Part shown: positions 26,449 to 60,410 of the stretch, piece after piece
How positions within the stretch are numbered: position 1 is the stretch's first letter
How the letters are laid out: each line of letters starts with the position of its first letter
IMG/VR virus record: IMGVR_UViG_3300034112_000721
Location: 32,001 to 96,000 of that record
Strand: one strand, 5' to 3'
From: a virus
DNA: 64,000 nt
Position numbers and translations under genes: made by a program
The notes under the pieces: model-generated
Seen by the model: the letters and a program-made list of their open reading frames with translations, nothing else
Told to the model about the DNA's origin: nothing
The model's database searches: none

Positions 26449-26481
26449 TAAAAGCAAAACCCCCGCGAGTGCAGGGGTTCT
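26449..26481 (-). terminator. Intrinsic terminator
   Basis: AGAACCCCTGC-ACTC-GCGGGGGTTTT followed by GCTTTT. Confidence 0.75.
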
Positions 26482-26514
26482 ACCAGTTGTTACAGAAACC
26501 AACAAACTGCAACT
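26449..26514 (-). ncRNA. Candidate 3'-UTR-derived sRNA with a UUGGUU-loop hairpin (copy 1)
   Basis: GTTGCAG-TTTGTTGGTTT-CTGTAAC hairpin, then ACTGGTA, then terminator; homologous to 60117..60183. Confidence 0.45.
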
Positions 26515-27516
26515 TTATATTTGTTCAACCATCATTTGAGCTTGTAATAACCAAGCTGCAGATGTTGCATCTTTTGTTTTAAATTTTAAACTAACTGTTT
26601 CACCAGCATTTAAAGTAATATAATAAAAGAAAGAAACATTAAATGGTAACTGACCATTTAAGAATCTAAACTCAACTGTATTACCTGCAGTAGTTAAAAC
26701 TTGATCAGGTGCAATAGAAGATCTATTTACAATATCTCCAACATTTGCACCATCCATTAATGATCCTGATAATAACGGTCTTCCAAAATTTTGATAAACT
26801 GGTGTATCAATAAAACCAACAGTTTTTATAATTGCTCCATCAACCCAGTTTGCAATATTAGAACTATTTGCTGATGTTGGTAATGTAACTGTATCATATG
26901 ATACCCATACTTTATAATTCTTAGCTGCACCTCCAGGATTAGTATATGATAATGCAGAATAATTTACATTTGGAAAACTATATATACTTGGTGTTGCACC
27001 AGCATTAAGATTTACTGTTTGTACATTATCATCATAGAAAAATTCTTTTGCTGTCGCATTTACAGTATATGTAGTTGTGTTACCTACTGTAGATGAAGTA
27101 ATATTAATTCCTGTTCCTGATTCAAGTTGTACAACTGGCAATTGTGTTGGATCAAAACAAATTGTATATGTAGTTACTCCTGTTACTGGGTTAGTGACTG
27201 AAGTTATATCTAAATAATCATTTGTATTACATACCTCTACAACAGATCCTAAGTCTGGGCCAGTAATATACTCACAGAAAAAACTAATAATTGCATTAAT
27301 AGCATCTGCTAAATTTGTATTAGTATCAACAACAACTTGTTGTATACATTCAATTGGTAATCCACTATATACAACACATTCTGCATCAAATACCTCAGAA
27401 CATGCAATTGGATTAGGACATCCTGCTGGAGTAGGACATGGTGCAGGTGAAATTAATCCATTATCTGAACATCCACATTTTTTACATCCACAAGAAGTAC
27501 AAGTATTATGAGCCAT
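26515..27516 (-). CDS. Cys-rich N-terminal structural (fibre/spike-like) protein
   Basis: 333 aa; CTSCGCKKCGC...ECVVYSGLPIECI N-terminus; beta-rich C-terminus. Confidence 0.5.
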   Translation of the reverse strand: MAHNTCTSCGCKKCGCSDNGLISPAPCPTPAGCPNPIACSEVFDAECVVYSGLPIECIQQVVVDTNTNLADAINAIISFFCEYITGPDLGSVVEVCNTNDYLDITSVTNPVTGVTTYTICFDPTQLPVVQLESGTGINITSSTVGNTTTYTVNATAKEFFYDDNVQTVNLNAGATPSIYSFPNVNYSALSYTNPGGAAKNYKVWVSYDTVTLPTSANSSNIANWVDGAIIKTVGFIDTPVYQNFGRPLLSGSLMDGANVGDIVNRSSIAPDQVLTTAGNTVEFRFLNGQLPFNVSFFYYITLNAGETVSLKFKTKDATSAAWLLQAQMMVEQI

Positions 27517-27527
27517 AGTTTAAATTA

Positions 27528-29207
27528 TTAAGGACAAACAATTGGTGTTGGTATATCTGTAGTACATGGATTAATATAAGCAATCAAACCATCAAGTTGA
27601 AAAATAAATCCTCCAAGATTTGTTTCATCATTTGCGTTACAGCTAAACTGATATCTTAGATTTGCATTATATTCCATGTTAAGAGGAATGGTTCCCGCAG
27701 CAGCATTACTGTTTACATTAGTATTTATATTATCAAACTTTGGAACATAATCTCCAAGACGAACATGTGAAATAATATAGTTTAAATGTGAAGTATCATA
27801 AGCAGCTGTTCCAGAAAAAATGTTTTGTTCTGCATTTTTAACTAATGCAAAGCTTAAAGTTTTATTACTTGAAATAGATAAGAATCCAACAGTTGTTAAA
27901 ATTGTACTTGTATCAGGAGCATTGTCAATCTGAGTTCTTCTATATCCTGTAGAAAATTCTTTAGTATAATTATCATCTAATAATTCTGCAACTCCCATTA
28001 CTGTAGATGGAATAACTACATTACCTTGATTAAATGTAATTAATCCAGAACCACTTGTAATAACAGACCCTGGTCCAACAGATGCAGGAGTAACAGTAGT
28101 TGATAAATAATAAGTATCAATTGGTGGAACATTTTGATATTGCCATAACAATGGTGCACCTGTTCCATCATCAATAGGTATCATTACTTGACCTTTAAAA
28201 TGCAATACATTACCAATTCTTCTTACTCTTGGTCTTAATGCATCTGTATCAGATCCAGTATAGAAACTAAAACCATCTAGGTCTACCCAACCTGTATCAA
28301 GAATCTTTGATGATACAGTATAAGCAGGTCCACCAGTTACTGTTGTAGCTATTGTGTTTGTAGTAGCTCCTGTAACTGTTACTGTTGTACCATTGTATAT
28401 ATCACATAATACAATCCATAAATTATTAATCACAGAAGCGATTGTACTTGCTGGTTGTATCCAAGTAGGATATTGTGCAGCATATGTAGCAGCAGGATTT
28501 ACTTTTGTAAAATCTGTACCCGCAATACACTGAGCAGTTACTGCACTTAGTAAAGATGCAGTTGATCCAGTTGCAGCATAGAATCCACACCAAACATCAT
28601 TTATAAACTCTTCTAGCACTACATCTATTCCATATGAGTTTCCAGAAATAAGTGAATTAATAGGACAGTTTATTGTAAATGATGGTAATGTAAATACAGG
28701 TGCAGGAGTTGTTTCTAGTGTAGTTACTCTAACATCTAGATCATTAATCTGTAAATTAATTGTGCTTATTTGTGTAATAAGATCACAAATTTTAGTACCC
28801 ATTGCCTGGGCATATTCTGCAACAGACATTACAGTTGTTGAACCTATAACAAAACATGGTGCTACAGTAACTAAAGTATCTGCTGTTGTTGTTCTTACAG
28901 TTGCGGATGGAGTTGCTACTGCAGTTGTTTGAGCAGTTTGCAGTGCACAAATCTTTTCAATTAAAAATTGAATTAATTCTTGAAAATTATTTGGTGCACA
29001 GCTTGAAAGATTAAAACAAGATAAATCATATCCATTAACATCTAGTAGGTCTAATACATTACAAAGCTCAGTTGCAAGCTTATGAATTACATTAGATACA
29101 GTGTCTCCAGTACATAATTTTATACAAGGAATATCTGGACCTTGCCATATCACACAGTTACTTGATATTGGACTACAAGGGCTATTATCTAAATTTAGAG
29201 GTTTCAT
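27528..29207 (-). CDS. Structural fibre-like protein with Cys-rich N-terminus and coiled coil
   Basis: 559 aa; SSNCVIWQGPDIPCI (related to the neighbouring gene), coiled coil, DTGWVDL...RVRRIGNVLHFKG fibre-tip-like motif. Confidence 0.55.
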   Translation of the reverse strand: MKPLNLDNSPCSPISSNCVIWQGPDIPCIKLCTGDTVSNVIHKLATELCNVLDLLDVNGYDLSCFNLSSCAPNNFQELIQFLIEKICALQTAQTTAVATPSATVRTTTADTLVTVAPCFVIGSTTVMSVAEYAQAMGTKICDLITQISTINLQINDLDVRVTTLETTPAPVFTLPSFTINCPINSLISGNSYGIDVVLEEFINDVWCGFYAATGSTASLLSAVTAQCIAGTDFTKVNPAATYAAQYPTWIQPASTIASVINNLWIVLCDIYNGTTVTVTGATTNTIATTVTGGPAYTVSSKILDTGWVDLDGFSFYTGSDTDALRPRVRRIGNVLHFKGQVMIPIDDGTGAPLLWQYQNVPPIDTYYLSTTVTPASVGPGSVITSGSGLITFNQGNVVIPSTVMGVAELLDDNYTKEFSTGYRRTQIDNAPDTSTILTTVGFLSISSNKTLSFALVKNAEQNIFSGTAAYDTSHLNYIISHVRLGDYVPKFDNINTNVNSNAAAGTIPLNMEYNANLRYQFSCNANDETNLGGFIFQLDGLIAYINPCTTDIPTPIVCP

Positions 29208-29226
29208 ATCTATAATATACTAATTA

Positions 29227-31092
29227 TTATTGAGAATTACAAGTGGTTGTTGGTGTCCCACAATTACATGGAGCATAACCACAAGATGGAGTACTTGGGC
29301 AACATGGATTAATAGAAGTACATATATAATTTGGATCTCTCAAAGCATCCAAATCTATAAGTTCTTTTTTAATTAACCATTTATCTGTATCTTCTGGACA
29401 ACAGTCAGATATTCCATATCTTAAGTATAATACTTGTTTGTAATATACTTCTGCTGATTTGCAAGATATTTTCTCATATTTTTCAATGGTACATGCCGGT
29501 GTGTTATATCCTGGTTGAACACTTCTTCTTGGATAAATAACTGGTGGACAAGACCAAATATCTTGTTGTGTATCTTCTGTACAATCACCATAAGTTTCTA
29601 TGTAGTCTGTTTCAGGATAATAAACATCCCAAACTCTCATACAGAATTTTTCAGACTGCGCTCCTGCAGCAAGTGTAAATGTTTGTACTATTAAATTACA
29701 ATCAAAATAACTATATGTTTTAGATGTAGTACTATCATTTCTTACAGTAGTACAAACACAAGGATATGTTAATAAACACTCAGTGCAGTTTGTATATTCT
29801 ATTTCTGGAAATACTATACCGGCATTTGTAGGATCATTAGTTTGTTGTACAGTCCAACATGTTTCTGGACAATACTTTATTTTGATAACTGATCCTATAT
29901 ATTGACTTAGATCTGTATATGTTATAATTGGATCTTTAAATCCTGTACAGTCAAAAAGCTTGTAATACTCTCTTGCACATGCAATGCAATCTGTGTAAGC
30001 TGCAGTAACTGTAACTATTGTATCAGAGGGTATATCTTGTATCTCTTCTATATACCAACATCCTGGACAATCCCCTCTAAGAATTACTTGACCTACAAAA
30101 GGACTTAAGTCTGAACTTGTGTAAACTATTGTGTTTGGATCATCACAATTTGTGAGCTTATACTTACTTGGATTTTTACAAGTAGGACAATCATCATATG
30201 CTTGAACTACAACTACATCTATTGCACAATCACAATTTGCAGTTGAATTAACTATCCAACATGTATCTGGATAATTTTCAATTTTTACTATTTGGCCAAG
30301 TATTGCATATAATCCTAGTGATAGTTTATTAGTAACAATAGGATCTTGAATACCATCACAGTCTACTAGTTCATAACACTCATCTGGGCAATTACCATTT
30401 ACACATGGTCCTATATTCACAATATTAATTGGACTAGGAAATTCATTACCAATTACTGCAGGATATGTAGAGGAACATGATATTTGCTCAAGTGTTCCAG
30501 TAAGTGGTCCAGTATTTTGAACATTACCATCACAGTCTATATATAAACAATCCTTAGAATTTGCAATTATATTATAACAATTACATGGACATTCACAGTC
30601 TTCTACATACGATAATGTTTCTGTTGTTGAATTACAGAATAAACTTGCATTAGGTGATAAAGCTACCTGATAACATGTTGCTGGTAAATCTGTTCCTTGA
30701 AGTACTACTGACTGTCCAACATAGGCTGATAAATCTTGTGTGGTAGTAAATGGTGGTATTGAACCATCACATGAAACTAATAAATAACAAGGATCACATT
30801 CTGCACACTCTCCAAACAATACAGAACAATCTGTATATCCAGGACCAGTTGTTGACATCCAATTACTACCTATATTTGGATATGCAGATCCGTCTCCTAC
30901 AACTTGAGTAAATAAATAACACTGGCCAGATATTAAACCATAGTAATCTCCATGAATTCCTGATGCATCATAGACTAGTTGCTGTGGAAAAGTAAAACCA
31001 TAAATTGGTGAATTATTTGCAATTGGAGGTTGAAAATATAATATTTCACCTGTGCAACATGATTCAAGTCTATAATAGTAAGGAGCAGACAT
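29227..31092 (-). CDS. Cys-rich repeat structural protein
   Basis: 621 aa; at least four repeats of YxLxxCxG/D...DLSxY/FVGQ...CW/Y. Confidence 0.6.
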   Translation of the reverse strand: MSAPYYYRLESCCTGEILYFQPPIANNSPIYGFTFPQQLVYDASGIHGDYYGLISGQCYLFTQVVGDGSAYPNIGSNWMSTTGPGYTDCSVLFGECAECDPCYLLVSCDGSIPPFTTTQDLSAYVGQSVVLQGTDLPATCYQVALSPNASLFCNSTTETLSYVEDCECPCNCYNIIANSKDCLYIDCDGNVQNTGPLTGTLEQISCSSTYPAVIGNEFPSPINIVNIGPCVNGNCPDECYELVDCDGIQDPIVTNKLSLGLYAILGQIVKIENYPDTCWIVNSTANCDCAIDVVVVQAYDDCPTCKNPSKYKLTNCDDPNTIVYTSSDLSPFVGQVILRGDCPGCWYIEEIQDIPSDTIVTVTAAYTDCIACAREYYKLFDCTGFKDPIITYTDLSQYIGSVIKIKYCPETCWTVQQTNDPTNAGIVFPEIEYTNCTECLLTYPCVCTTVRNDSTTSKTYSYFDCNLIVQTFTLAAGAQSEKFCMRVWDVYYPETDYIETYGDCTEDTQQDIWSCPPVIYPRRSVQPGYNTPACTIEKYEKISCKSAEVYYKQVLYLRYGISDCCPEDTDKWLIKKELIDLDALRDPNYICTSINPCCPSTPSCGYAPCNCGTPTTTCNSQ

Positions 31093-31250
31093 TACTTAGT
31101 GTATTTTTGTAGATCTTGTTTATTTTTACCTAATTTAAGTTGTGCTTCATATTTTCCAATACAATTAGAACACACCTGTTGTCCGTTTGATGCTTTTCTT
31201 CTCTGACATCCACAAGACAATTTTGTTTTACAATTTGCACATACTGACAT
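31092..31250 (-). CDS. 52-aa Cys-rich zinc-finger/metallothionein-like protein
   Basis: Translated by hand: MSVCANCKTKLSCGCQRRKASNGQQVCSNCIGKYEAQLKLGKNKQDLQKYTK; TAATG-coupled to the next gene; AACCAATAAT leader. Confidence 0.75.
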   Translation of the reverse strand: MSVCANCKTKLSCGCQRRKASNGQQVCSNCIGKYEAQLKLGKNKQDLQKYTK

Positions 31251-31270
31251 ATTATTGGTTTTTAGTTAGT

Positions 31271-31831
31271 TTAACAATTTGTACAAGACAATTTATTTAA
31301 AAGCTTTAAAGCATAGTTGTATAAAGCCATTCCTTTCTGTGGCTCATGACAAAACTCTACTTTAGATTTTGCAGCTTGAAGATACATAAATATTAATCTA
31401 AGCTCCTCTAGCTTCTGTTGTATTTTAAATGGTGGTTCACATGCTGCTACATCAACATCACAAAGTATTTTGTAATATTTATTTAGGGCATGTGTTACCC
31501 TTAAATGATTATATTCTACATAAACTGTTTCATTAGGTGAAACACTATATTTTATAATATAAATACCATCTGGTAAATTATAATATGAAGTTCCACAGTC
31601 TACAGTTTGTAGTTGTAAATCACAAGCAGTTATGGTAGCAGATCCTGTAGTATAAAAATTTGTAGCATCTATTTGATTAGAATATCCAAATCCTGGAACA
31701 GTAATGTTCAAGGTAGGACATACTACAGGTATTGCAGGATTTGCTGTTTGATACACACTTGTGTCAAGTAATTTAAGAACACATTCATTCATTACTTGAG
31801 GCACCTCTAAACTTAATACATGATTTGCCAT
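31271..31831 (-). CDS. Structural protein (tail hub-like)
   Basis: 186 aa; DTSVY...LNITVPGF...LPDGIYIIKYSVSP; synteny. Confidence 0.5.
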   Translation of the reverse strand: MANHVLSLEVPQVMNECVLKLLDTSVYQTANPAIPVVCPTLNITVPGFGYSNQIDATNFYTTGSATITACDLQLQTVDCGTSYYNLPDGIYIIKYSVSPNETVYVEYNHLRVTHALNKYYKILCDVDVAACEPPFKIQQKLEELRLIFMYLQAAKSKVEFCHEPQKGMALYNYALKLLNKLSCTNC

Positions 31832-31844
31832 AACTATGTTTTAT

Positions 31845-31878
31845 AAAAAAGGGAGAGGAGTATAAACTCTCTCTCCCC
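31845..31878 (-). terminator. Intrinsic terminator after the auxiliary capsid gene
   Basis: GGGAGAGAGAG-TTTATA-CTCCTCTCCC followed by TTTTTT. Confidence 0.8.
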
Positions 31879-31903
31879 TTATATATTTATTAACGTTTAA
31901 CTA

Positions 31904-33547: not shown

Positions 33548-33625
33548 TTTTTTTATAATTTAATTAAACAAAGAATATACTATAATATAGTAAAAAATTT
33601 TATAATAACAAAAAAAGCTAGAAAA

Positions 33626-34255
33626 TTATCCAGCTACTTCTGCCATATCATTATCTAATAGTCTTAAAGCTAATGGATCTGTACCAAATGTTCTTAGTTT
33701 ATCCATCCAAGTTTGCATCTTATCATGCTCTTCAACTTGTTCTTTTAAGTATCCTAAACATAATTCATAAAGAATATGATCCTTATTTGACATTGCAAAA
33801 TCTGCCATTTTTTTAATTTGAGTAGATACTTCTATCTCATGCTCATAAGATAACCTTACAATTTCTGGAAGACTTCCTGAAAAATCTTGTTGTGGTTGAT
33901 CTAATCTTGGAGTTAATGGTTGTACTCCAAATGATAATAAATACTTACGTGCAATATCAGCATGAGTTAATTCTTCATCTGAATACTTTCTCCATAGAGC
34001 AGCAGCACCTTTGAATCCTTTTTCATCTAACCACATTGTCATTGACATATAAATTCTAGAAGAATACTCTTCTTGTTGAATTCTATAATTTAAATAGTCA
34101 ACAGCATTATCTGTAATTAATGGGTTCATAGTAGCTACATCTGGAACTTCTTTTGATGCACCAGAACTTGGTTTATCAATACTAGGAATTCCTGTAGATG
34201 GCGGAAGTTTTACTACACTTGTATCTAATCTTTTTAATAATCTTTTCTGTTCCAT
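33626..34255 (-). CDS. ftn: Ferritin (FtnA-like) with an N-terminal extension
   Basis: Four-helix ferritin pattern QQEEYSSRIY...DEELTHA...EHE...EQVEE with ferroxidase ligands. Confidence 0.9.
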   Translation of the reverse strand: MEQKRLLKRLDTSVVKLPPSTGIPSIDKPSSGASKEVPDVATMNPLITDNAVDYLNYRIQQEEYSSRIYMSMTMWLDEKGFKGAAALWRKYSDEELTHADIARKYLLSFGVQPLTPRLDQPQQDFSGSLPEIVRLSYEHEIEVSTQIKKMADFAMSNKDHILYELCLGYLKEQVEEHDKMQTWMDKLRTFGTDPLALRLLDNDMAEVAG

Positions 34256-37787: not shown

Positions 37788-38813
37788 TTAAGAGTTCCAT
37801 AATTTTTCAACAGAAGCTGTAACATCTTTAAGAATATCTTCATTTAAAGGATTCTTAAAGTATTCTACAACATCTGATACATTTCTACCAAGTAAGCTGT
37901 TAGACTTAGCATGATAAATATGACCATCTGCCTTACTTATAATATACTTAAAAAATACGGAATCTCTAACAATTGATTTAATTTTTAGTGTTTCCATATC
38001 CATATTTACTGCATCAATGAAAGATTTAGCTGCTCTTTCTTTATTAGTCTCACCACCCTCTCCATTAATGTACATATCCATATTCTCATAGATAATGTCA
38101 TTTGGTGTTGATTTTCTGTACTGTGTACTATTAAGATCAACAACTTTTGCAATGTAGAATAGTTTAGTACTATTCTTATCAAATAATTTCTGAAGTTCAG
38201 AAAGTGCTTTGTTACGCATTTTCTTGTACTCAGTTCTAACCATCACAGTTTCTTCTTCTTTATCTAGATAAAACTTAGGTGGTTTTGCTTTTGATCTTGC
38301 ATCTTCATAACTCTTTGCTATAATTGAAAATGCCCCAGCTTCAATAGCATAAATCTTAATTCTATCAAAAGGATCTTTTGGATCTAAAAATACTGGCTCA
38401 TTACCACATTTAATATCAATCTTATTCCAGAAATCTTTATTGTCTGGTTTAAGTAATTTAACTTTGTTCCAAAAATCCTTATCCTCAATATCTAAAACAT
38501 TAGCTGCAAGTTCTCTTTCAAGTTCTGCAACTGCTGTTCTTATTTCTCTAATTTTTGCTTCTCTTTGATCTGATGGTAATGTTTTAATTTCTGGAGCAAA
38601 TTCATTAAGCCCAGTAATATATCTTGTTACACCATTTACTTCAAGACAAGCTAATTGTTCTTGGTGCTTTACACCATCAAACAAAACTTGTTGGTAATTT
38701 TCTAATCCCATGTTTGACATTCTGCTGTCAAAGTATGGTCTAATAGCAATAGCTGTTTTTCTTGCGGTGGCAGCTTTGTTAATTTCCACCATTGTAAATT
38801 CTGCGTTTTCCAT
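37788..38813 (-). CDS. Conserved head-module protein downstream of the MCP gene
   Basis: 341 aa; YITGL...FWNK...LDPKDPFD; synteny with the crAss-like head module. Confidence 0.55.
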   Translation of the reverse strand: MENAEFTMVEINKAATARKTAIAIRPYFDSRMSNMGLENYQQVLFDGVKHQEQLACLEVNGVTRYITGLNEFAPEIKTLPSDQREAKIREIRTAVAELERELAANVLDIEDKDFWNKVKLLKPDNKDFWNKIDIKCGNEPVFLDPKDPFDRIKIYAIEAGAFSIIAKSYEDARSKAKPPKFYLDKEEETVMVRTEYKKMRNKALSELQKLFDKNSTKLFYIAKVVDLNSTQYRKSTPNDIIYENMDMYINGEGGETNKERAAKSFIDAVNMDMETLKIKSIVRDSVFFKYIISKADGHIYHAKSNSLLGRNVSDVVEYFKNPLNEDILKDVTASVEKLWNS

Positions 38814-38889: not shown

Positions 38890-40509
38890 TTATAGAGAGC
38901 CACCAGTGATTGGGTTTCTCATAACAATTTTCAAGACTTTTGTAGGGTCTTTTACCCAGATAGCTGGCATTGTTTGAGACATCATCACACGGTACCCGTT
39001 GAATTGTCCAGAAGACTGGAATCCTTGAGTTCTTCCCATGTAGTCCATAGTACCATTTTGGTACCACCACTTCAATTGGTTATCCCAAGAAAGTTTCAAC
39101 ATAAAGATGTTATCATTAGTGTTATCAGTGATATCAAAGATGATAAAGCTGTAAGAAGATAATGGGAAACCATCAATGATTGGGTTCTCAATATCATTTG
39201 TATGAACATTGTCAAATGCTGGGTTAAGAACAAACTTAACATTTGCCAAGAATGGAATTACATATGAAGTATAAGCAAATCCAAAGTTCAAGTCCATACC
39301 TTTACCAGTGATAGCACCAATATCAGCAGCCTGAATTAACAAACCTGAAGAGATAGCTTCTTGCTTGATGGCCTCATTAACCATACGCATACCACCCATA
39401 CCAGTTTGTACAATAAGAGATCTTTTTGGATCTGGTCCTTGGAACTCAACCTTACCATTGAAGAAGTTATAGATTTCTCCACGGAATAAGTCAAGAGTAA
39501 AGTTATTTTTGTTGTATACTCTTTTGAACGCATTGTTCAATTGTTGCCAAAGTCCAACAGATAATCTGATATCATCTGGACCATCTTGCTTAACTTTACC
39601 TCCTTGTCCCCACATTAAGTAAGTCTCAATGTCAGTTGCAATTTTAGAAAGGTGAGCTGCTTCCATGTTTGTCAAGAAAGTTCTAGACAAATCTCCGTTA
39701 TCAAATGCTTTTTTAACAGCATCTTTACCCATAACTTTTACCATATCCTCTAAAGATGTGATAGATGGATCAGTAACATTTTTGTCAAATGTTCTCCAGA
39801 TCTCTGTTACAGGAATAGTACCATCTGCATTCATACCACCTTTGATCATTAAGTCTGCTCTAGAAGAGATAGAATAATGTACGTGAGCTTCAGCACCACC
39901 AACAAAGTTGTAGTATTCACGGAAACCAGCTTGTGTAATGATGTCAGAAAATCTTTCACCATACTCACCTCTTGCAGAACCTTTTCTGAAGAATCTAGTT
40001 CCATTAGCTAAATATGCATTGTCTAAGAATCTAGTGTTGTCATTATTTACAAGTTGAACAGTGTAAATAAATCCATCACCAATTGGAAGAATGTCTTCAT
40101 CTGTGATGTACAATTCCACACCATTATACTTGTCATAAGTAATAATGTCACCGTGACCAAATTCTCTACGGCTTAATTTAATTCTGAAGGTTGTTCCATC
40201 AATACCTTTGAAAGTATTTGTTGGTTCAATATCTTCAATTACATATGGAAGATCTGTAGAGACAGGAGTCTGCCACTTATACTCTCCACGAGCATTATCA
40301 ACCATAATTACATTTTTGCCACCAAAGCTAGAAAGCTGATAAAGGGGCATTTCTACTTTTTGAGCCATAGCCCAAAGGTCTACTGGACCTAAATCCATAG
40401 GTTCAGCATCTTTTAACATATTCACTAAGTGATAAGAGTCTACATGCGATGAAGCTTGGTAGGCTGTATCTCTCAGGAATATCCCATTGTTTAAAATTGG
40501 AGTTGCCAT
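38890..40509 (-). CDS. Major capsid protein (crAss-like HK97 fold)
   Basis: 539 aa; follows portal and scaffold; YLMWG...GLWQQL, TGMGGM, FGFAYTSY, IWVKDPTK; followed by a terminator. Confidence 0.85.
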   Translation of the reverse strand: MATPILNNGIFLRDTAYQASSHVDSYHLVNMLKDAEPMDLGPVDLWAMAQKVEMPLYQLSSFGGKNVIMVDNARGEYKWQTPVSTDLPYVIEDIEPTNTFKGIDGTTFRIKLSRREFGHGDIITYDKYNGVELYITDEDILPIGDGFIYTVQLVNNDNTRFLDNAYLANGTRFFRKGSARGEYGERFSDIITQAGFREYYNFVGGAEAHVHYSISSRADLMIKGGMNADGTIPVTEIWRTFDKNVTDPSITSLEDMVKVMGKDAVKKAFDNGDLSRTFLTNMEAAHLSKIATDIETYLMWGQGGKVKQDGPDDIRLSVGLWQQLNNAFKRVYNKNNFTLDLFRGEIYNFFNGKVEFQGPDPKRSLIVQTGMGGMRMVNEAIKQEAISSGLLIQAADIGAITGKGMDLNFGFAYTSYVIPFLANVKFVLNPAFDNVHTNDIENPIIDGFPLSSYSFIIFDITDNTNDNIFMLKLSWDNQLKWWYQNGTMDYMGRTQGFQSSGQFNGYRVMMSQTMPAIWVKDPTKVLKIVMRNPITGGSL

Positions 40510-40537: not shown

Positions 40538-41779
40538 TTAAAATCTCTTGAAGAATCCACCTCTTGAGATAGTTTTTTGCGGTTTGCTAGTTCTTGTTTT
40601 TGAATCATATTCTCTATCATCATTTACAGAAGAAGTAATTTTTCTAGCTTGTTCTGTCTTTAATTGTCTTACAACTTTTTCTGTAGCTTGCTTACCACCT
40701 TGCTCTTTTATCTTTGACTTATATCCATTTGGATCTGCAAGTAACCAAAGTGCCTCAGCAATTAAATCATGTCTTGGTTCTACAAACTGATATTTCTCTA
40801 ATAAGTGGCCTAGTAAGTTTGTAGGTTTACCAGATATAGATGGATAATTAGGTTGTACTAATCCGGAGTATAACATACTTTGTACTTTCTTATCTAATCT
40901 TATTCCACCTATCTCACCATTAACAAGAGTACTATATACATTATCTGTATAAGCTCTAGCTGCTTCTTCTTGCTGTTGCCTTTTTAATTCTTGTTCAGCA
41001 AGTTGTCTAGCAACTATTTCTTCTTGCATTCTATCTAACTTTGGTTTAAACTGATTAGCCTTTTGTTCAAGTCTATTCATATCTTTCCAGTCATTGATTT
41101 CTTCTTCAATTTCTTCTGGAGTACCAAAGCTTGTAGCATATAAATACTGACGTGCAATTTCTGCTTGATCATATTCATCAGATGGATCTAGTTGTCTCAT
41201 CTCTTCTACTTGAGCAAGAGTTCTAAAGAGACCTTTAAGATCTGTACCACCATCTGCTACATACTTAGCTGCATACTGAAGTTCTTCTGGAAGTGCATTA
41301 AAAAACTCTTTTGGAGTATTTTCTCTTACTGCATTTTCTCTTTCCTGGAAGTTTGCTTCAAATAGTTCACGGAAATCTTTTGTAGTATATTCTTCTAATG
41401 GTTTGTCATCATCAAAAGGTACTAAAGATCCTTCCTCAATCATTTTTTGTGCTAATTCAGCAAGACCAGATTTATCAATTTTTGGTCTACCTTTATTACC
41501 AGCATCTTCTTCTTGAGTAATTAAACTATCTAGCTCAGCTATAGTTTCTTCTACTTCTTCTTTCTTTGCTACTTCTTCTTTAGAAGCAGGCTTGTCAAGG
41601 AACGAGGTATCTGTAGTTTCCTTTGAAAATACAGATTTTGGTTTTTCTTCTTCTACTGGTAGCATTACATTTTCTGCTCCCGGCATTCCAAACATCTCAT
41701 CAATATTTACATCTACATTCCCTACCAGTGTAGAGTCCTGTACCTGACCTTTGTCAGATTTGTTTTCTAATTCTTCCAT
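40538..41779 (-). CDS. Scaffold-like acidic protein
   Basis: 413 aa, acidic and coiled-coil, between portal and MCP. Confidence 0.65.
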   Translation of the reverse strand: MEELENKSDKGQVQDSTLVGNVDVNIDEMFGMPGAENVMLPVEEEKPKSVFSKETTDTSFLDKPASKEEVAKKEEVEETIAELDSLITQEEDAGNKGRPKIDKSGLAELAQKMIEEGSLVPFDDDKPLEEYTTKDFRELFEANFQERENAVRENTPKEFFNALPEELQYAAKYVADGGTDLKGLFRTLAQVEEMRQLDPSDEYDQAEIARQYLYATSFGTPEEIEEEINDWKDMNRLEQKANQFKPKLDRMQEEIVARQLAEQELKRQQQEEAARAYTDNVYSTLVNGEIGGIRLDKKVQSMLYSGLVQPNYPSISGKPTNLLGHLLEKYQFVEPRHDLIAEALWLLADPNGYKSKIKEQGGKQATEKVVRQLKTEQARKITSSVNDDREYDSKTRTSKPQKTISRGGFFKRF

Positions 41780-49179: not shown

Positions 49180-49479
49180 CTAGCCTCTTTTAAGCTTTCT
49201 CTTTCCTTGATCTGCTGTATTAGACTCTTTATCAATATCAAAATCTGAACCTCTTTCTTCATCTGCTTCTTCTTGTTGAGGAGCCATCATCATAGCATAC
49301 TGATATTGAATACTAGATCTTTTAAATCTTGCTTCATCAATTTTTAAAAGCATTTCTTCATAATCTAATTGTGCTCTTAAATAAGGCATAGAAGTTTGAT
49401 AAAACTCTAGCATTTTTTCTTTTTGCTCTTCTAACTGTTCAGGAGTTAGTTGCATTTCTGGTTGTTGGTTTGTTTCCAT
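49180..49479 (-). CDS. Hypothetical coiled-coil protein
   Basis: 99-aa ORF downstream of a TATATTTG promoter. Confidence 0.7.
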   Translation of the reverse strand: METNQQPEMQLTPEQLEEQKEKMLEFYQTSMPYLRAQLDYEEMLLKIDEARFKRSSIQYQYAMMMAPQQEEADEERGSDFDIDKESNTADQGKRKLKRG

Positions 49480-53068: not shown

Positions 53069-53539
53069 TTAGTTAATAATCATAAAGTGTACTTTAACTA
53101 TATTGTTTAATGCAGCATTTCCACCATTTGCTATAACAACCTTGAATGATCCAGCAGCAATATCAGATACACCAACTACAGGAATTCCTGTTGCAGCTTC
53201 ATCATATTGCACACTTACTAAAATGCGTGATGTAGCAGTTATGTTTGAGTTGTTTACTGTAAAAAATGTTTTAGCATTTGCAGCTAATGTAGAAGATACA
53301 GTAGTTATTACACCGTTTAATGTATCCAATGTTACAGCCGTTGTAATAGAAGTTAACTGAGTTACAGTACCTGTATTATACAAAGATTGTAAAGGTCCTG
53401 CATTTACTGCTAATGGTAACCAAGCATCATCTCTAGTTACATCTTTTGATCCAATTGCCAATAGATTAGGAACATCTGTTGGAAGAGTTTCTCTATAGTT
53501 TCCTGCTTTAATCCAGGAGATAAAATTTAAAACATCCAT
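53069..53539 (-). CDS. Short fibre/decoration protein
   Basis: MDVLNFISWIK anchor; GTVTQLTSITTAVTL...GVITT domain. Confidence 0.6.
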   Translation of the reverse strand: MDVLNFISWIKAGNYRETLPTDVPNLLAIGSKDVTRDDAWLPLAVNAGPLQSLYNTGTVTQLTSITTAVTLDTLNGVITTVSSTLAANAKTFFTVNNSNITATSRILVSVQYDEAATGIPVVGVSDIAAGSFKVVIANGGNAALNNIVKVHFMIIN

Positions 53540-53564
53540 GACTTTTTGTTTTTATATATTATTA

Positions 53565-54548: not shown

Positions 54549-54610
54549 TTCTAAATAATTATATACATTATATCTATAATATAATGAAAATTATTTAGAT
54601 AACAAATTAA

Positions 54611-54745
54611 TTAAGATATTATATCCCCAATTTCTAATATGTCAGAAATGATATAAGTTGTTTCTGAAAGCATGTATAGATTTTCTTCTTCTATACTTAT
54701 AATATTTTCTACCTTATTATCTACTATTATTGCTACTCTTAACAT
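54611..54745 (-). CDS. 44-aa fibre-associated protein
   Basis: Translated by hand: MLRVAIIVDNKVENIISIEEENLYMLSETTYIISDILEIGDIIS; TAATG-coupled to the Gly-rich fibre gene. Confidence 0.65.
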   Translation of the reverse strand: MLRVAIIVDNKVENIISIEEENLYMLSETTYIISDILEIGDIIS

Positions 54746-56550
54746 TAGAAGTAAGTTATAATTATACAAAACCCATTTCCTCCAGTTCCTCCACCACCTG
54801 AGTTTGCACCATTTGTAGATGCACCACCACCAGCACCACCAGCACCAGGTCCACCGTTACCACCTTTTCCACCAGCTATTGTGCCCGCAGCATCTCCTGA
54901 ATTTCCACCACTACCACCAGTTGAGAAAAACAATCCGGAAGGGCTATTAGTTATTAAACTGCCATTATTACCACTTGCACCTACAGTTCCAGATACAGTA
55001 ACACTTGCTATTATTTGAGCTGTAGCAAGACCTGTTAAGTTCATACCTCCACCAGTATTAGTAGCATTTACTGTGCTAAGACCTCCTCCTTGTCCACCAG
55101 CCATTAATGGTCTAGATATATAAGTTGTTGTACCTCCAGAAAAGTTAGCTGGTCCAACAGAACCAGTACCAAAAATTGATGTAGTATAAATTACACCAAA
55201 CATTATTGAGTTACCAATACCAGAGCTACCTTGTGATGCTGCAGTTCCACCTAATCCACCAAATCCATTTCCAGTACTAAGTTTTGCTGTAGTAGAAACA
55301 CCTGTTCCTCCAAAGAAAGATGGTGCTCCTGTTCCTCCTGCTGCACCATTAGTATCATTGACTCCTATAGCTGAAGCACCTGTTCCACCAACACCAATCC
55401 AAACATTTTCTGTAGACCCTAAGTTGTTTGCATTTATTTTAGCAATGTTAAAAGAACCAGAAGACCCACCCCCACCGCCATATCTAGCTGTACTTGCTGC
55501 ACCTCTTCTACCTGAAGCACCTCCACCACCTCCTCCAACTAAATAAATTTCAACATATTTTGCATTAGCAGGTTTTGTCCATACACCACTAGATAAGAAA
55601 ATTTGAGTATCTATTAGTGATTCTGTTGATGTATAATTAGGAATATTTAAAGTAGAACCTGTAAGTGTAGCTGCACCTGACGTACCTGTAGTAGTTAAAC
55701 TAAGTATTGGCTGATATGTGCTTGCTGCTGTTGCTGATGTAAGATAAGGTAATAAAGCAGATGATGTTATATAACCAGCAGGGTTAGCATTATCATAGGG
55801 TGTATAACCAAGAGCAGTAGTAATATCAAAAGCTGTAATTCCTGAAATATAACCTGAAGGGTTGCTGCTATCATAGGGAACATACCCTAAAGCACTAGTA
55901 ACCATTGATCCTGATATGGCATTTAAGTAACCAGCTGGGTTACTAGAATCATATGGTGTGTATCCTAGTGCAGTTGTTACATCTAAACTTGTTATACCTG
56001 TGATATATCCATTAGGATTTGTAAGTGGATAATAAGTACTAGCTGCTACAGCAGAAGTTAAATAACCTGAGAGAGCTGCACTTGTAATGTATCCAGCTGG
56101 ATTAGTACTGTTATATGGTGTAAACCCTAATGCGGTTGTTACCATTAAACTAGTTATTCCAGAAATATATCCAGAAGGATTAGTTAAAGGATAGTATGTA
56201 CTTGCTGCAGTAGCAGAAGTTAAATATGGTGTTAGTGCAGTAGAATTAATATATCCCGCTGGATTGGCTGAGTCATATGGTGTATATCCAAGAGCACTGG
56301 TAACCATAGACCCAGATATAGCGTTTAAATAACCTGCAGGATTTGAACTTAATGGATAATAGTACATATTATATGTAGATACTCCTAAATTCCAATCTAC
56401 TCCTGGGTTAGGATAAGTACCATAAAGGTCCCCACCTGCTGGTCCAGTAGGAGATCCACCACCTCCACCAGTAGTTTTTGGTTTACCATCAGGACCAGTT
56501 ATCTCAATCCCACCACCAAATACATTACCATTACTATCTATTACTTGCAT
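54745..56550 (-). CDS. Tail fibre with NPxGY/ALGYTPY repeats and a Gly-rich receptor-binding domain
   Basis: Eight NPxGY and five ALG(Y/F)xPY repeats; C-terminal FLSSGVWTKP...VGGGGGG Gly-rich domain. Confidence 0.8.
   Translation of the reverse strand: MQVIDSNGNVFGGGIEITGPDGKPKTTGGGGGSPTGPAGGDLYGTYPNPGVDWNLGVSTYNMYYYPLSSNPAGYLNAISGSMVTSALGYTPYDSANPAGYINSTALTPYLTSATAASTYYPLTNPSGYISGITSLMVTTALGFTPYNSTNPAGYITSAALSGYLTSAVAASTYYPLTNPNGYITGITSLDVTTALGYTPYDSSNPAGYLNAISGSMVTSALGYVPYDSSNPSGYISGITAFDITTALGYTPYDNANPAGYITSSALLPYLTSATAASTYQPILSLTTTGTSGAATLTGSTLNIPNYTSTESLIDTQIFLSSGVWTKPANAKYVEIYLVGGGGGGASGRRGAASTARYGGGGGSSGSFNIAKINANNLGSTENVWIGVGGTGASAIGVNDTNGAAGGTGAPSFFGGTGVSTTAKLSTGNGFGGLGGTAASQGSSGIGNSIMFGVIYTTSIFGTGSVGPANFSGGTTTYISRPLMAGGQGGGLSTVNATNTGGGMNLTGLATAQIIASVTVSGTVGASGNNGSLITNSPSGLFFSTGGSGGNSGDAAGTIAGGKGGNGGPGAGGAGGGASTNGANSGGGGTGGNGFCIIITYF
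55690..56365 (-). repeat. Degenerate tandem coding repeats in the fibre shaft
   Basis: Protein-level repeats with synonymous DNA divergence. Confidence 0.75.
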
Positions 56551-56552
56551 AT

Positions 56553-56861
56553 CTATTGAGCATAATCTGTACCGTAAACATAGTATGATGTTCCTACTAT
56601 ATCACTATATACAATTAATTGATCTCCTGGGTTTAGGGCATATATGGTATTATCAGTAACTGAATCCCCAGCAGATAGATTAAATTCATATATTGTTTCA
56701 GTAGATGCTGTTAAAGCATCATATCTAGTTAAGGTAAGTATGTAAGCTGCTGGATTATAAAACTTTAATAATGTTATTTTAGTAGATAAGGGTCCGGCTA
56801 TACCAGTATATATTACTGTACCTAAAACACTTACTTGACCCTGATTTATAATTTCTGCCAT
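56553..56861 (-). CDS. Small beta-rich structural protein
   Basis: 102 aa; LNPGDQLIV motif; overlaps the fibre start region. Confidence 0.6.
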   Translation of the reverse strand: MAEIINQGQVSVLGTVIYTGIAGPLSTKITLLKFYNPAAYILTLTRYDALTASTETIYEFNLSAGDSVTDNTIYALNPGDQLIVYSDIVGTSYYVYGTDYAQ

Positions 56862-56873
56862 AAACTAATATAC

Positions 56874-56906
56874 AAAAAAATCCCCAGCTTTGCAACTGGG
56901 GATTAT
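56874..56906 (-). terminator. Intrinsic terminator
   Basis: ATCCCCAG-TTGCAAAG-CTGGGGAT followed by TTTTTT. Confidence 0.8.
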
Positions 56907-56941
56907 AGCCTGAAGTAAACCATTGGAAAGAAGAGAACAGG

Positions 56942-57133
56942 CTAAAGTAGTAGGCCAATGGTAAATGCAAAAAACAACATAAAGAATACACAGACTATTG
57001 CCAGTTTAATACTATCTTCATCTGATACATATTCTTTTTTGAGTTTGTCATATGCAGGTTTATACATCACATGTGCAACCATCCATAATATTGCTATTGC
57101 AGATAATAACATTATGATAGATAAAACCTTCAT
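56942..57133 (-). CDS. Small two-TM membrane protein
   Basis: 63 aa with two hydrophobic helices. Confidence 0.65.
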   Translation of the reverse strand: MKVLSIIMLLSAIAILWMVAHVMYKPAYDKLKKEYVSDEDSIKLAIVCVFFMLFFAFTIGLLL

Positions 57134-57387
57134 TACTTCATATTTAATAGCTTCTCAACAATTAATTGAGCAGCTGTAATTTGGCCAATTGCTTGATCAA
57201 ATAATAAACTCTTTACTGGAGATTTAGATTGGTTATAATTTTCTTTTAACATCTCAGCTATCTTAGAAATTGATCTTCTTATTTCTAAAATTTCTTCTGT
57301 CTCTGTAAATTCTTCTTTATCTAAACCAACTAAGATATCTCCAAAAGAATAGATCTTAGTTTCTTTAAAAGCTACTTGCTCACTCAT
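57133..57387 (-). CDS. Acb2/Tad1-like helical-hairpin protein (candidate nucleotide sponge)
   Basis: SFGDILVGL...SLLFDQAIGQITAAQLIVEKLL resembles the FG-VG...S-AIT-Q-AQM-AVK pattern as I recall it. Confidence 0.4.
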   Translation of the reverse strand: MSEQVAFKETKIYSFGDILVGLDKEEFTETEEILEIRRSISKIAEMLKENYNQSKSPVKSLLFDQAIGQITAAQLIVEKLLNMK

Positions 57388-57692
57388 AATCTATCAATTC
57401 TTCTTTGTAAATATACTAAAGCTTTTTGTAAATCCTCTTTCTTACTAGAAGTTTTTTTACCCGCTCTTGCTAAATATTTTATAACATTCCCCAGATAGAA
57501 ATCTTCATCTAAACCCCAAGCTTCTAATACATTAAATACTTCATAAGTATTCCCTGCACCACCATAATACTTAGGCCTATCAAGATTTATAATTCTATCT
57601 TTTAATGGTATCTCTTTAGATATTATTCTATCAAAAGGTGTACTCATTTTACTTTGATAGAGATCTTCTGATTCTTGTGTAAAGTTTACCAT
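57384..57692 (-). CDS. DUF3310 (SaV-like) protein
   Basis: PKYY...FYLGNVIKYLARAGKK...EDLQKALVYL. Confidence 0.85.
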   Translation of the reverse strand: MVNFTQESEDLYQSKMSTPFDRIISKEIPLKDRIINLDRPKYYGGAGNTYEVFNVLEAWGLDEDFYLGNVIKYLARAGKKTSSKKEDLQKALVYLQRRIDRL

Positions 57693-58060
57693 ACAATTGC
57701 AATATCTCTTTCAGCAACCATTAACTTCATTCCATCCTCAAGCTCTACTGCTTCAGATGCTTGTAACCCGGTAATTCCCATGTACACTTTATCCCCCACC
57801 TTTACACTTGATACTTCATCCCCTACTGCATAAACTTCTAGTTTAGTCCATGTCTTTCTCATATCCATTTCAAGTGCAAGCTTGTCAGCTTCACTTAATT
57901 CAAATGGAGATTCTTTTACTTCTGGTTTATTTAATAAAACCCTTTTTCCTTTTAGTTGCATTGTATTGGTTTTTAATTTTTCAAATAATTCTCTAGCTTG
58001 CAAGTTGTCTTCTGCAAGAGTAGTAGCCTTTTCCCAAAGTACTTTTTCTTCTAGAGTCAC
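57686..58060 (-). CDS. groES: GroES-like co-chaperonin (start either GTG 58060 or ATG 57961)
   Basis: MQLKGKRVLL...EVYAVGDEV..VKVGDKVY...VAERDI. Confidence 0.7.
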   Translation of the reverse strand: MTLEEKVLWEKATTLAEDNLQARELFEKLKTNTMQLKGKRVLLNKPEVKESPFELSEADKLALEMDMRKTWTKLEVYAVGDEVSSVKVGDKVYMGITGLQASEAVELEDGMKLMVAERDIAIVW

Positions 58061-58081
58061 AGACAAATATAAATAAAAAAT

Positions 58082-58219
58082 TTATTTACCTTGTCCTCTA
58101 TATAACTTTTTATAATTCTTGCTTGCTTTAAGTTTGCTAATTTTAGTTTTAGCATGTACTCCTGGACGGGATACTTTTACTGCAACTATTTTTTTTGGAG
58201 CTTCTTTTATTTTTGCCAT
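58082..58219 (-). CDS. 45-aa basic protein ending in YRGQGK
   Basis: Translated by hand: MAKIKEAPKKIVAVKVSRPGVHAKTKISKLKASKNYKKLYRGQGK. Confidence 0.75.
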   Translation of the reverse strand: MAKIKEAPKKIVAVKVSRPGVHAKTKISKLKASKNYKKLYRGQGK

Positions 58220-58254
58220 GATATAAATAATTAAGTACTATATAATATACTCAA

Positions 58255-58887
58255 TTATTCGTTATCATAAAACATTCTTTCTGAATCTTCTGTATGCCAC
58301 TTATCAAATCCCTCACAGTTATAGTAATCTTTATTAACTAAGTAATCTGGTTTTTCAGGGAATGGTTTAGTTACAAAACTTGGTTCAGACCACTTGATTC
58401 TATTATTTGGTTGAAGAGCTATTTGTCCGTTGTCAAGTAAAATCACATGATGACTCTTGTGTTCTAGTGGGTCTTCTGCTAAAGATATGTCAGTATTAAT
58501 ATCTCCGCTACCCCAGTTTATTGTTGCATAGTAACTACCTGGGTAGAACTTGTGATCTTTCATATATACTTCTACAGGAGTATCATACAAATATGATAGA
58601 TGTAACAAAGTAAAGTTATAAGAGAAACAATTCCATATCTGTAGAAAGTGAAATGGTAGATCTGGATCTGGTAACTCAGGCTTAGTCAGTAGGGCATGGC
58701 TTGGTAACTTGTCTCTAAGTACGCCATTCTCTAACAATACCTGGAACAATGCTGCTTGTCCTGGTAGACATCTTACAGATATAATTACCCCCGGGGTAAA
58801 TTCTCCATGACCTTTTGTACCTTGGTACATGTACTCATTCCTAACAAATACCTTGAGAGGAAAGAAGTTGTGTTCTATGTATGCCAT
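58255..58887 (-). CDS. Conserved phage protein of unknown function
   Basis: VRNEY...GHGEF...QIWNCFSY...EHKSHH...NGQIALQPNNR motifs, widespread in aquatic phages. Confidence 0.7.
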   Translation of the reverse strand: MAYIEHNFFPLKVFVRNEYMYQGTKGHGEFTPGVIISVRCLPGQAALFQVLLENGVLRDKLPSHALLTKPELPDPDLPFHFLQIWNCFSYNFTLLHLSYLYDTPVEVYMKDHKFYPGSYYATINWGSGDINTDISLAEDPLEHKSHHVILLDNGQIALQPNNRIKWSEPSFVTKPFPEKPDYLVNKDYYNCEGFDKWHTEDSERMFYDNE

Positions 58888-59330
58888 TATTTCTTAAAGA
58901 AGTTTTTCTTTGGTTGTTCCTTTGTACTAAATCCTAGCTTTTCAATTATCTTGTTTGCTTCATCTTCAGCAAAGGTAATAGCTTCTTCTTCTTTATCCTT
59001 GATATTCCAGTTATTTAATAAAAGACTCATATGCATAGTTTCATGCATAACAGCTGTGGCTTTCTCTGTAAGAGAGTATTTCTTAAATGTCCCTAGATTA
59101 ATAAATAGAAATGGTTTGTATGGGGCTTTTGCTGTTAGCTTTTTATCAGCGGGATCATAGTTAGTAAAACCATAAATATAAACCCCATTGCCAACAGTCT
59201 TATCTACTTCTTCTGCCTTGGCATCTTTACGGTTTAACCCGTGCATTTCTGTAACGTCATAGTAATCAAATATCTCAGTAGCATTATTACCAGCTATTAA
59301 GATATATTTACCCATATCATACTCTTTCAT
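58887..59330 (-). CDS. HEXXH zincin-like metallopeptidase
   Basis: AVMHETMH...EEEAIT. Confidence 0.6.
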   Translation of the reverse strand: MKEYDMGKYILIAGNNATEIFDYYDVTEMHGLNRKDAKAEEVDKTVGNGVYIYGFTNYDPADKKLTAKAPYKPFLFINLGTFKKYSLTEKATAVMHETMHMSLLLNNWNIKDKEEEAITFAEDEANKIIEKLGFSTKEQPKKNFFKK

Positions 59331-59340
59331 AACACTAGTT

Positions 59341-59946
59341 TTAGATATCTGTAGATTCTAGCAAAGTATAAGAAAACTTATTGCCATGTATCTTAGCTGC
59401 CCTTTTACATATGGACATAAACTCATTAAAGTCTTTTACTCTTTTAAACACTTGACATCCCTCACTCCAATTCTCTACCCATGTGCTGTCAGTACCTGCT
59501 TTGTGAATATTAATTCCAAATATGCCGGTATCTTTTACCTTTTCATCAAACACTAAATCTTTATTAGCATCTCTCCATACAGTAACATTACCTAGTCTCT
59601 GGCATAATGCATCATATTTGCCCTGGTGTTTATCAACCATCCATGTTGATCTATACTGCCCAGGTACTAGTCTTGCTACACCCTTGGCATTGTGGAATTG
59701 TTGTACTCCCTTTTTGCCCGGGTCAGTAGTTGCATTCCAGCAGAAAAAGTTCCAGTTACCTAAGCTATCCTTAAATGTAATGGTAATACAATCATCAAAT
59801 ACATTGGTTACTTTTCTATAAACTGCTGGAGAATTATTGCGGACACCCACAACATTAACATCATACCCTTTATTAGCAGCATCTTCAAACCACTTATAAC
59901 CTTTAGCTTTTACAGCACGTTCTATTTGCTCTCTAGTATAACACAT
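59341..59946 (-). CDS. L,D-transpeptidase-like (YkuD-type) peptidoglycan enzyme
   Basis: ATTDPG...GQY...GINIHKAG...NWSEGCQV (His...SxGC). Confidence 0.7.
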   Translation of the reverse strand: MCYTREQIERAVKAKGYKWFEDAANKGYDVNVVGVRNNSPAVYRKVTNVFDDCITITFKDSLGNWNFFCWNATTDPGKKGVQQFHNAKGVARLVPGQYRSTWMVDKHQGKYDALCQRLGNVTVWRDANKDLVFDEKVKDTGIFGINIHKAGTDSTWVENWSEGCQVFKRVKDFNEFMSICKRAAKIHGNKFSYTLLESTDI

Positions 59947-59969
59947 ATCCTTTTACTTTAATATACAAA

Positions 59970-60101
59970 TTATTTCCGGATACTAGTCTTACTATAAGCA
60001 TCACACTTTTGAGTAGACTTACATCCCGTCATAAGATACCCTATAGCCAAACCTATGCATATACCAAATACACATAAGCAAAATACTTTCCATTTTTCCA
60101 T
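59970..60101 (-). CDS. 43-aa lipoprotein (CKS...CDAY family)
   Basis: Translated by hand: MEKWKVFCLCVFGICIGLAIGYLMTGCKSTQKCDAYSKTSIRK. Confidence 0.7.
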   Translation of the reverse strand: MEKWKVFCLCVFGICIGLAIGYLMTGCKSTQKCDAYSKTSIRK

Positions 60102-60105
60102 ACAA

Positions 60106-60113
60106 CAAATATA
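60106..60113 (-). promoter_or_regulatory. Bacteroidota-type -7 promoter element TATATTTG (also at 26437, 49506, 58064, 60185)
   Basis: Exact TAnnTTTG matches in five intergenic gaps, oriented with the downstream genes. Confidence 0.7.
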
Positions 60114-60116
60114 ATA

Positions 60117-60183
60117 AAATAACAAAGGCCCGGGCTTTCAACTCCAGACCTTTGTACCAGTATTAACCAAATAATATAGCATG
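60117..60183 (-). ncRNA. Candidate stand-alone sRNA with a UUGGUU-loop hairpin (copy 2)
   Basis: Own TATATTTG promoter (60185-60192), hairpin TATTA-TTTGGT-TAATA, ACTGGTA, terminator ACAAAGGTCTGG...CCGGGCCTTTGT. Confidence 0.55.
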
Positions 60184-60410
60184 ACAAATATACAACTGTA
60201 TTTTAATATTCCAAACCGGTGGTAAAAATATTTTGTTTTAGAGATTGTTAGGGACCCCTAGTAGCCAGACCCCCCCACCTGCCGCGCTTGGTGCTACCCC
60301 CTACTTCTTTCTACTAGACATGTTGAATTGTAGAATAATTTGTAAATGTTTTACAGCTGGAAGTTTCTGGTACTTCTTTCTACAGATGTTGAATCATTAA
60401 AATTTTTATC

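Follow-up and report, generated by a model that had tools for sequence, protein, structure and literature searches.

A conserved hairpin-terminator RNA of a crAss-like phage group with a loop complementary to A/C-rich leader tags

The DNA considered here is a 64,000-nucleotide (nt) window, bases 32001-96000 of the IMG/VR virus record IMGVR_UViG_3300034112_000721, which has 112,531 base pairs (bp) with direct terminal repeats; all positions below are those of the window. Its minus strand carries at 26449-26513 a short hairpin-terminator element (element 1) which, judged from its occurrence in related contigs, is a single-copy and widely conserved RNA motif of an uncultured crAss-like phage group. 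The explanation favoured here, with confidence that is about evenly balanced, is that element 1 is an anti-leader RNA pairing with a set of tagged translation leaders, and that another minus-strand element at 60117-60192 (element 2) is an unrelated, lineage-specific insertion. The main argument is that two noncoding strings of 9-11 nt, each invariant independently of the other, are exact complements, for which a chance origin seems unlikely by a rough estimate. A covarying hairpin presents one of the strings, and the others stand at a fixed position before the start codons of orthologous genes. An earlier interpretation made from the letters alone (the sequence-only reading) had proposed a family of two homologous small RNAs (sRNAs); the present case rests on a single element and not on a two-member family.

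Element 1 is predicted to fold into a 7-bp hairpin (26513-26489), after which an intrinsic terminator follows. The hairpin consists of the 5' arm GUUGCAG (26513-26507), the loop UUUGUUGGUUU (26506-26496) and the 3' arm CUGUAAC (26495-26489). It begins 2 nt past the TAA stop codon (26517-26515) of the open reading frame (ORF) 26515-27516. The terminator (26449-26484) combines an extended stem, GGUAGAACCCCUGC / GCGGGGGUUUUGCU, with a loop ACUC and a U-tract, and its 14 bp span 26484-26453. The fold energy of element 1 is -30.6 kcal/mol (z = -5.3). G.U pairs are frequent in the hairpin stem, so the fold works on this RNA strand alone, which argues against an element acting at the DNA level or on the opposite strand. 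An H-type pseudoknot formed by the loop sequence UUGUUG and the flanking CAACAA was rejected for the window's clade, where the linker would be 0 nt long; the flank varies between clades. At the gathering threshold of Rfam 15, only a transfer RNA (tRNA) passes in the window and neither element matches. The best sub-threshold Rfam match of element 1 is driven by the terminator and reaches 32.5 bits against a cut-off of 55, and element 2 has no match at permissive thresholds.

The motif is present in every relative examined, in several clades. Searches of GenBank phages with DNA and protein gave tRNA matches only, or none, and no relative was found; all of the relatives used are therefore IMG/VR contigs. 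The 80 loci carrying the downstream gene of 193 amino acids (aa) yield 56 distinct upstream regions, two of which are cut by contig ends, and the hairpin is kept in all 54 complete ones. The cassette formed by the hairpin, the terminator, the box TATATTTG and the leader AUUUUUAGUAUAUUA is almost unchanged where the flanking proteins share just 62-89% identity, and it persists even when the C-terminus of the upstream gene is replaced. As this upstream gene varies, there is no room for an independent conserved promoter upstream of element 1. In the window, the conserved promoter/leader part of the cassette (26399-26444, minus strand) belongs to the next gene, 25817-26398, with TATATTTG at 26444-26437 and the invariant AUUUUUAGUAUAUUA at 26424-26410.

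Within the window's clade (clade A), the stems differ only by changes that preserve pairing (GUUGCAG/CUGUAAC, GUUACAG/CUGUGAC and GUCGCAG/CUGUGGC), and the stem of relative L171 is re-registered. In distant clades, whose homologue of the post-capsid protein shows 56-59% identity, the hairpin is missing from the orthologous site, and the motif is found approximately one gene upstream instead (about 1.4 kb in G038). The stems there are wholly different (GUGGUAG/CUAUCAC, GUGAUGG/CUAUUAC, UUGUGAUGG/CUAUUACAA, GUGGUGG/CUACUAC and GGCAAUAA/UUAUUGCU), the loop core UUUGUUGGUUUU is constant, and an unrelated terminator follows the hairpin. Still further clades have the stems GUCACG/CGUGAC and GUAGAG/CUCUAC. 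Pairs were counted in an alignment of 31 copies (30 distinct, distant clades included) that was fitted to the structure of the model and leans towards it: 98.6% of the cells of helix 1 are paired and four of its seven pairs change on both sides, values which none of 500 shuffles reached, and in the terminator core 7 of 8 pairs change on both sides. The covariance-model comparison across related phages, for which the sequence-only reading had called, thus gave for element 1 a covarying stem and a loop core constant across several clades. As a separate observation, several relatives of the distant clades (L242, L328, L336, L339, L343, L346, L347, L356) have a second (U)GUUGGAG in the spacer between hairpin and terminator; it partly repeats the GUUGG of the loop, directly ahead of the terminator stem.

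The covariance model built from element 1 (R1) defines the motif as a 6-9-bp stem with a loop containing UUGUUGGUU, followed within about 10-15 nt by a terminator, situated after a stop codon in the late/tail module and present in a single copy. Element 1 has the UUGUUGGUU loop, the terminator, the position after a stop codon in the late/tail module and the single copy, and scores 85 bits. Scores of 18-47 bits are obtained for members of distant clades, whose stems are unrelated; generic terminators at unrelated loci reach about 20-28 bits under the same model, so the weakest family match is not diagnostic by score alone. The R1 scan of the genome gave one copy and no additional ones elsewhere. 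The next-best match (61894-61954, plus strand, 20 bits) was rejected as a second family copy: its score is that of generic terminators, and the region is kept in one close relative only. This site lies at the end of ORF 61576-61911: a hairpin GUGCUAU-UGGUUA-AUAGUAC, the loop of which contains the stop codon of the ORF, is followed by ACAACAAG and a terminator.

The counterpart of the loop is an A/C-rich tag in translation leaders. Of the 115 ORFs of the genome, 11 have AACCAA in the interval -25 to -1, where 1.1-1.5 would be expected, and nine of these eleven tags stand at -12 to -8; this confirms the AACCAA leaders pointed out by the sequence-only reading. The base after AACCAA is C or U in nine of the eleven and the following base is A in all of them, so that the consensus AAAACCAAYAA complements the loop over its entire length, the Y facing the loop's G. 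In a small set of phage genes, the tag is found about 10 nt ahead of the start codon, and it is best conserved in two genes that flank the major capsid gene.

The first of these is the 341-aa gene 37788-38813, which comes after the major capsid gene and is not the capsid gene itself. Its tag AAACCAACAAA (38825-38815, minus strand) ends 1 nt before the ATG and is the exact 11-nt complement of the loop TTTGTTGGTTT (26506-26496). The leader of this gene contains AACCAACA(A) in 29 of 29 relatives of clade A, many of them with two tandem tags 12-15 nt apart, and in a distant clade 44 of 45 distinct leaders retain AAAACCAA. In distant clades, its tag lies approximately 30 nt downstream of a TAnnTTTG promoter box and therefore inside the 5' untranslated region (UTR). 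The second is the 413-aa gene 40538-41779, located between the portal and capsid genes, with the tag AAACCAACA (41791-41783, minus strand) that matches the loop over 9 nt; its leader has AAAACCAACA(A) in 29 of 30 genomes of both clades. A 10-nt match, AAACCAACAA (49471-49462, minus strand), falls in the first codons of ORF 49180-49479 and would be a leader tag at -14 to -5 if the second ATG is the true start. These three complementarities had already been noticed in the sequence-only reading and were reproduced. Further tags on the minus strand are AAACCAAUAA (31252-31261) before the 52-aa ORF 31092-31250, which pairs with the loop via one G.U, and AACCAA (57966-57971) at -10 of ORF 57686-57961. 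A different feature of distant clades (L247-L326, L387-L466) is a perfect palindrome, TGTACATAATTATGTACA, located about 30-50 nt upstream of the homologue of the 341-aa gene. It overlaps with the promoter box of that gene, TACTTTTG, and is a candidate operator for a phage regulator.

When the loop was scanned for duplexes with translation start regions, the best value (-12.4 kcal/mol) was obtained at 37788-38813 and was equalled by 2 of 100 composition-matched shuffles. Several points weigh against the pairing explanation. The count of Watson-Crick matches of at least 8 nt in start regions is equalled by 33 of 200 permuted loops, which is not significant. With G.U allowed, permuted loops are equal or better in 177 of 200 and 129 of 200 in the counts of contiguous matches, a test that has little power. 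U-rich loops easily match A-rich leaders. The loop and the tag core are invariant in all clades examined, four further clades having been walked; no compensatory change of loop and tag occurs, and covariation between the two therefore cannot be shown. Distant clades keep just the 8-nt core AAAACCAA before the 341-aa gene, where pairing would be weak, and the leader of the major capsid gene has no tag. The leaning of the pair-count alignment counts on the same side. Finally, the tags are SD-like (Shine-Dalgarno-like) in position and could serve ribosome binding independently of the hairpin.

In the mechanism proposed, element 1 would form the 3' end of a late (tail-module) transcript, the hairpin following the stop codon and the terminator following the hairpin. 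The hairpin would display the invariant U/G-rich loop UUUGUUGGUUU(U), the complement of AAAACCAAYAA, and this loop would base-pair in trans with short unstructured leaders. The acting form may be the 3'-UTR of the messenger RNA (mRNA) or a processed RNA of about 60 nt. Pairing would alter the access of ribosomes, repression being the simplest outcome; alternatively, it could protect the 5' end of the mRNA and its short 5'-UTR. We infer from sequence that element 1 is transcribed, that it pairs in vivo and in which direction the effect goes. Element 1 would accordingly be classed as a base-pairing regulatory RNA with an anti-ribosome-site loop. As in sRNAs from 3'-UTRs, a conserved seed is complementary to conserved sites in translation start regions. 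A study of phage phi14:2 reported abundant non-coding RNAs of unknown role (10.1101/2020.03.07.982082), which makes a late-expressed regulatory RNA plausible. The literature search revealed no regulatory RNA with an assigned function in crAss-like phages and no paper describing the motif; the motif strings matched primers only.

A much broader proposal can be built on this, although we consider it rather unlikely. AAAACCAAYAA would be a phage-private ribosome-loading tag in hosts ignoring Shine-Dalgarno signals, and the single hairpin RNA its master switch. The two would make up an RNA-only post-transcriptional regulon, coupling transcription of the tail operon to translation of head-assembly and some early genes across a large crAss-like clade. 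How translation starts are signalled in Bacteroidota and their phages is little understood. With a conserved RNA loop that mirrors a positioned non-SD leader tag, a concrete and testable pair of elements is at hand, and it opens the questions of how such phages mark a subset of mRNAs and how the marked mRNAs are controlled.

The alternative that survives best, possible but clearly behind an even chance, is that element 1 is a cis-acting 3'-end element: a site for an RNA-binding protein of the phage or its host, a determinant of RNase processing or stability, or a partner of the terminator. The loop would then be kept for recognition by a protein, and its complementarity to the tags would have no function. 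Such a role fits the position of the hairpin, always between a stop codon and a terminator, and an invariant loop of 11-12 nt on a variable stem also resembles a protein operator. The frequent matches of permuted U-rich loops to A-rich leaders are in line with it, and in the window's clade an alternative fold exists in which the loop pairs with the flanking CAACAA (L216). However, the loop on the one hand and the tags of two orthologous genes on the other are conserved independently and are exact complements over 9-11 nt, and the tag consensus fits the loop along its full length with Y opposite G, which is unlikely to have arisen by chance according to the rough estimate.

The claim of the sequence-only reading that elements 1 and 2 are homologous members of an sRNA family, both acting on AACCAA leaders, is improbable. 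Some of what it described is correct. According to fold and terminator predictions, each element combines a hairpin with a strong intrinsic terminator behind it, on the minus strand in both cases, and TTGGTT and ACTGGTA occur in both. Element 2 follows no ORF and possesses its own promoter box, TATATTTG at 60192-60185. The hairpin of element 2 (60180-60156) contains UUUGGUU, and a terminator follows at 60155-60117. For its loop region, a duplex of 12 bp with a single bulge is predicted at the leader of 31092-31250 (-9.9 kcal/mol).

Homology, however, does not follow. The hairpin of element 2 is a weak one with a 5-bp A/U stem and the loop UUUGGU; it lacks the invariant GUUGG and thus the loop by which R1 defines the motif. 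With filters off and a limit of E<=10, R1 still gives no match to element 2, whereas members with unrelated stems score 18-47 bits. ACTGGTA is not a feature of the family. It is not conserved among the 48 distinct copies of element 1 aligned from relatives, where the spacer varies (ACTGGTAGA, ACGGGTAGA, ACAAGGCAAAG, ACAACGGCAAAG and others). Its role also differs between the two elements: in element 1 the GGTA lies inside the terminator, GGUAGAA pairing with UUUUGCU at the base of the stem, and in element 2 ACUGGU sits in the stem of the first hairpin. By our own estimate, another terminator near TTGGTT is to be expected fairly often by chance in a window that contains 15-20 terminators.

Element 2 is moreover absent from close relatives (L020, L021, L022, L024) in which the neighbouring 201-aa protein is 96-99% identical, and one of these, L022, is the same contig as L001, which retains element 1. 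In its place, orthologous to approximately 60110-60250 of the window, they carry 2-4 tandem AACAATGTCTAACACAAAA-type repeats, which look like iterons or operators in a divergent control region. The 21-mer of element 2 occurs in one other IMG/VR contig only, a 4.5-kb fragment (L019) with a flanking protein 100% identical to that of this phage. What the comparisons support of the sequence-only reading is the idea of a phage RNA with a loop antisense to AACCAA leaders for element 1, in which the stem covaries, the loop is invariant and the tag is conserved at two genes; the two-member family falls, as element 2 lacks the defining loop, and the repression, late shut-off and stoichiometry control suggested there are putative effects.

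Element 2 (fold z = -3.5) is located in the divergent early/late control region. Downstream of it, a second TATATTTG (60113-60106) precedes a 43-aa lipoprotein-like ORF (60101-59970). On the evidence of these sequences, element 2 is a lineage-specific promoter-hairpin-terminator insertion. It supplies a terminator and a duplicate of the TATATTTG box found in the downstream promoter, and may represent an insulator or a short terminated transcript. A comparable arrangement is PR'-tR' of phage lambda, which gives a short terminated transcript. Both have a promoter, a transcript (of about 60 nt and predicted for element 2) and a terminator directly upstream of lysis-type genes, which in this phage encode the small lipoprotein and a protein whose match to an endolysin PHROG is weak. 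Unlike PR'-tR', element 2 has a second identical promoter box after the terminator and is missing from close relatives.

Another duplex is predicted for the 5' part of element 2 (60150-60183, minus strand), which would pair over 25 bp with the leader and AUG of gene 25817-26398 (26395-26425, minus strand). It contains one bulge and several G.U pairs and has an energy of -23.1 kcal/mol, equalled by 1.6% of 548 intergenic 34-mers used as an empirical null. The sequences involved are quasi-palindromic TA-rich promoter/leader motifs, and a predicted link of element 2 with this start region is a weak lead.

The ORF after element 2 (59970-60101, minus strand) has a lipobox, LMTGC, and is followed by the 201-aa protein (59341-59946, minus strand), the one with the weak match to an endolysin PHROG. 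About 385 IMG/VR contigs encode this protein with more than 80% identity. The two genes are a possible lysis cassette heading the leftward block. On the other side of element 2, a GC-rich block (60200-60410) is conserved in close relatives, and its minus strand contains repeats of GTAGAAAGAAGTA, which read TACTTCTTTCTAC on the plus strand. The block fits a proposal in which cassettes of a hairpin and TACTTCTTYYTAC serve as early promoters of a virion RNA polymerase.

About as improbable as the two-member family is a role of the shared 9-mer as a double-stranded DNA site for a phage regulator that binds in either orientation, with operators just downstream of promoters and one site in element 1. 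The tags do lie close to promoters, and two tandem copies are present in some leaders. However, every tag reads in the sense direction and takes its position from the ATG, inside operons as well, and the spacing of the tandem copies varies (12-15 nt). In element 1, the stem that encloses the site covaries, is rich in G.U pairs and is sensible only as an RNA of this strand. The idea that the tag recruits ribosomes through a host component, which the hairpin loop mimics as a decoy titrating tagged mRNAs, draws on the SD-like position of the tag and on the TAnnTTTG promoter boxes, which point to Bacteroidota hosts that, according to a passage in PMC7797042, do not use SD pairing, but it still requires loop-tag pairing, is thus a variant of the favoured explanation and is very improbable in its own right.

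The anti-leader function favoured for element 1 has partial parallels in known systems, the first of which is found in enterobacteria. CpxQ, SroC and DapZ are base-pairing sRNAs derived from 3'-UTRs. Element 1 is similar to them in its location at the 3' end of an mRNA, the shared terminator, the short conserved seed and candidate targets in the start regions of several genes elsewhere. It differs in being encoded by a crAss-like phage that apparently infects Bacteroidota, in presenting the seed in a hairpin loop and in being known here from sequence; no chaperone of the Hfq type is expected. RsaE/RoxS are C-rich-loop sRNAs of Firmicutes, and the icaR 3'-UTR of Staphylococcus aureus reportedly carries an anti-SD motif. 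These share with element 1 a hairpin or 3'-UTR motif complementary to a ribosome-binding signal in a set of mRNAs, whereas the signal of element 1 is not the Shine-Dalgarno sequence but the A/C-rich AAAACCAAYAA, and its loop is U/G-rich. The c4 antisense RNA of phages P1/P7 controls translation by pairing of its loops with the ribosome-binding region of a phage mRNA. Both RNAs are phage-encoded and direct loops at phage ribosome-binding regions, the pairing being predicted for element 1. The c4 RNA has a single downstream target in its own operon and acts in immunity, whereas the single loop of element 1 has several candidate targets, which are dispersed, and its context is that of late structural genes.

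The window has a GC content of 33%. From its gene content the phage is crAss-like, because it possesses crAss tail ring proteins 1 and 2 (24109-25820), a crAss-type major capsid protein gene (38890-40509), portal and large terminase genes, and giant ORFs at the left side. Nearly all genes up to approximately 60100 are on the minus strand, and plus-strand genes start from 60411.

The motif TTTTnAGTATATTA recurs shortly before several minus-strand genes, often directly after a terminator, with sites at 26410-26424, 13678-13691, 29213-29226, 33583-33596, 54577-54590 and 56866-56879, all on the minus strand. Before the 193-aa gene it is invariant as AUUUUUAGUAUAUUA in all relatives seen, and a similar TTTTGTATATTA stands ahead of the 413-aa gene in relatives. 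The motif is thus far a candidate for a promoter of middle/late genes or for a leader element. Within the structural module, the minus strand encodes at 33626-34255 a ferritin-like protein (PF00210, 3.5e-26). A match to a PHROG annotated as ferredoxin (phrog_3704, 5.9e-62) lies on the same strand at 58255-58887, in the leftward block near 58.5 kb. The plus strand carries a tRNA-Arg with the anticodon TCT at 63254-63328.

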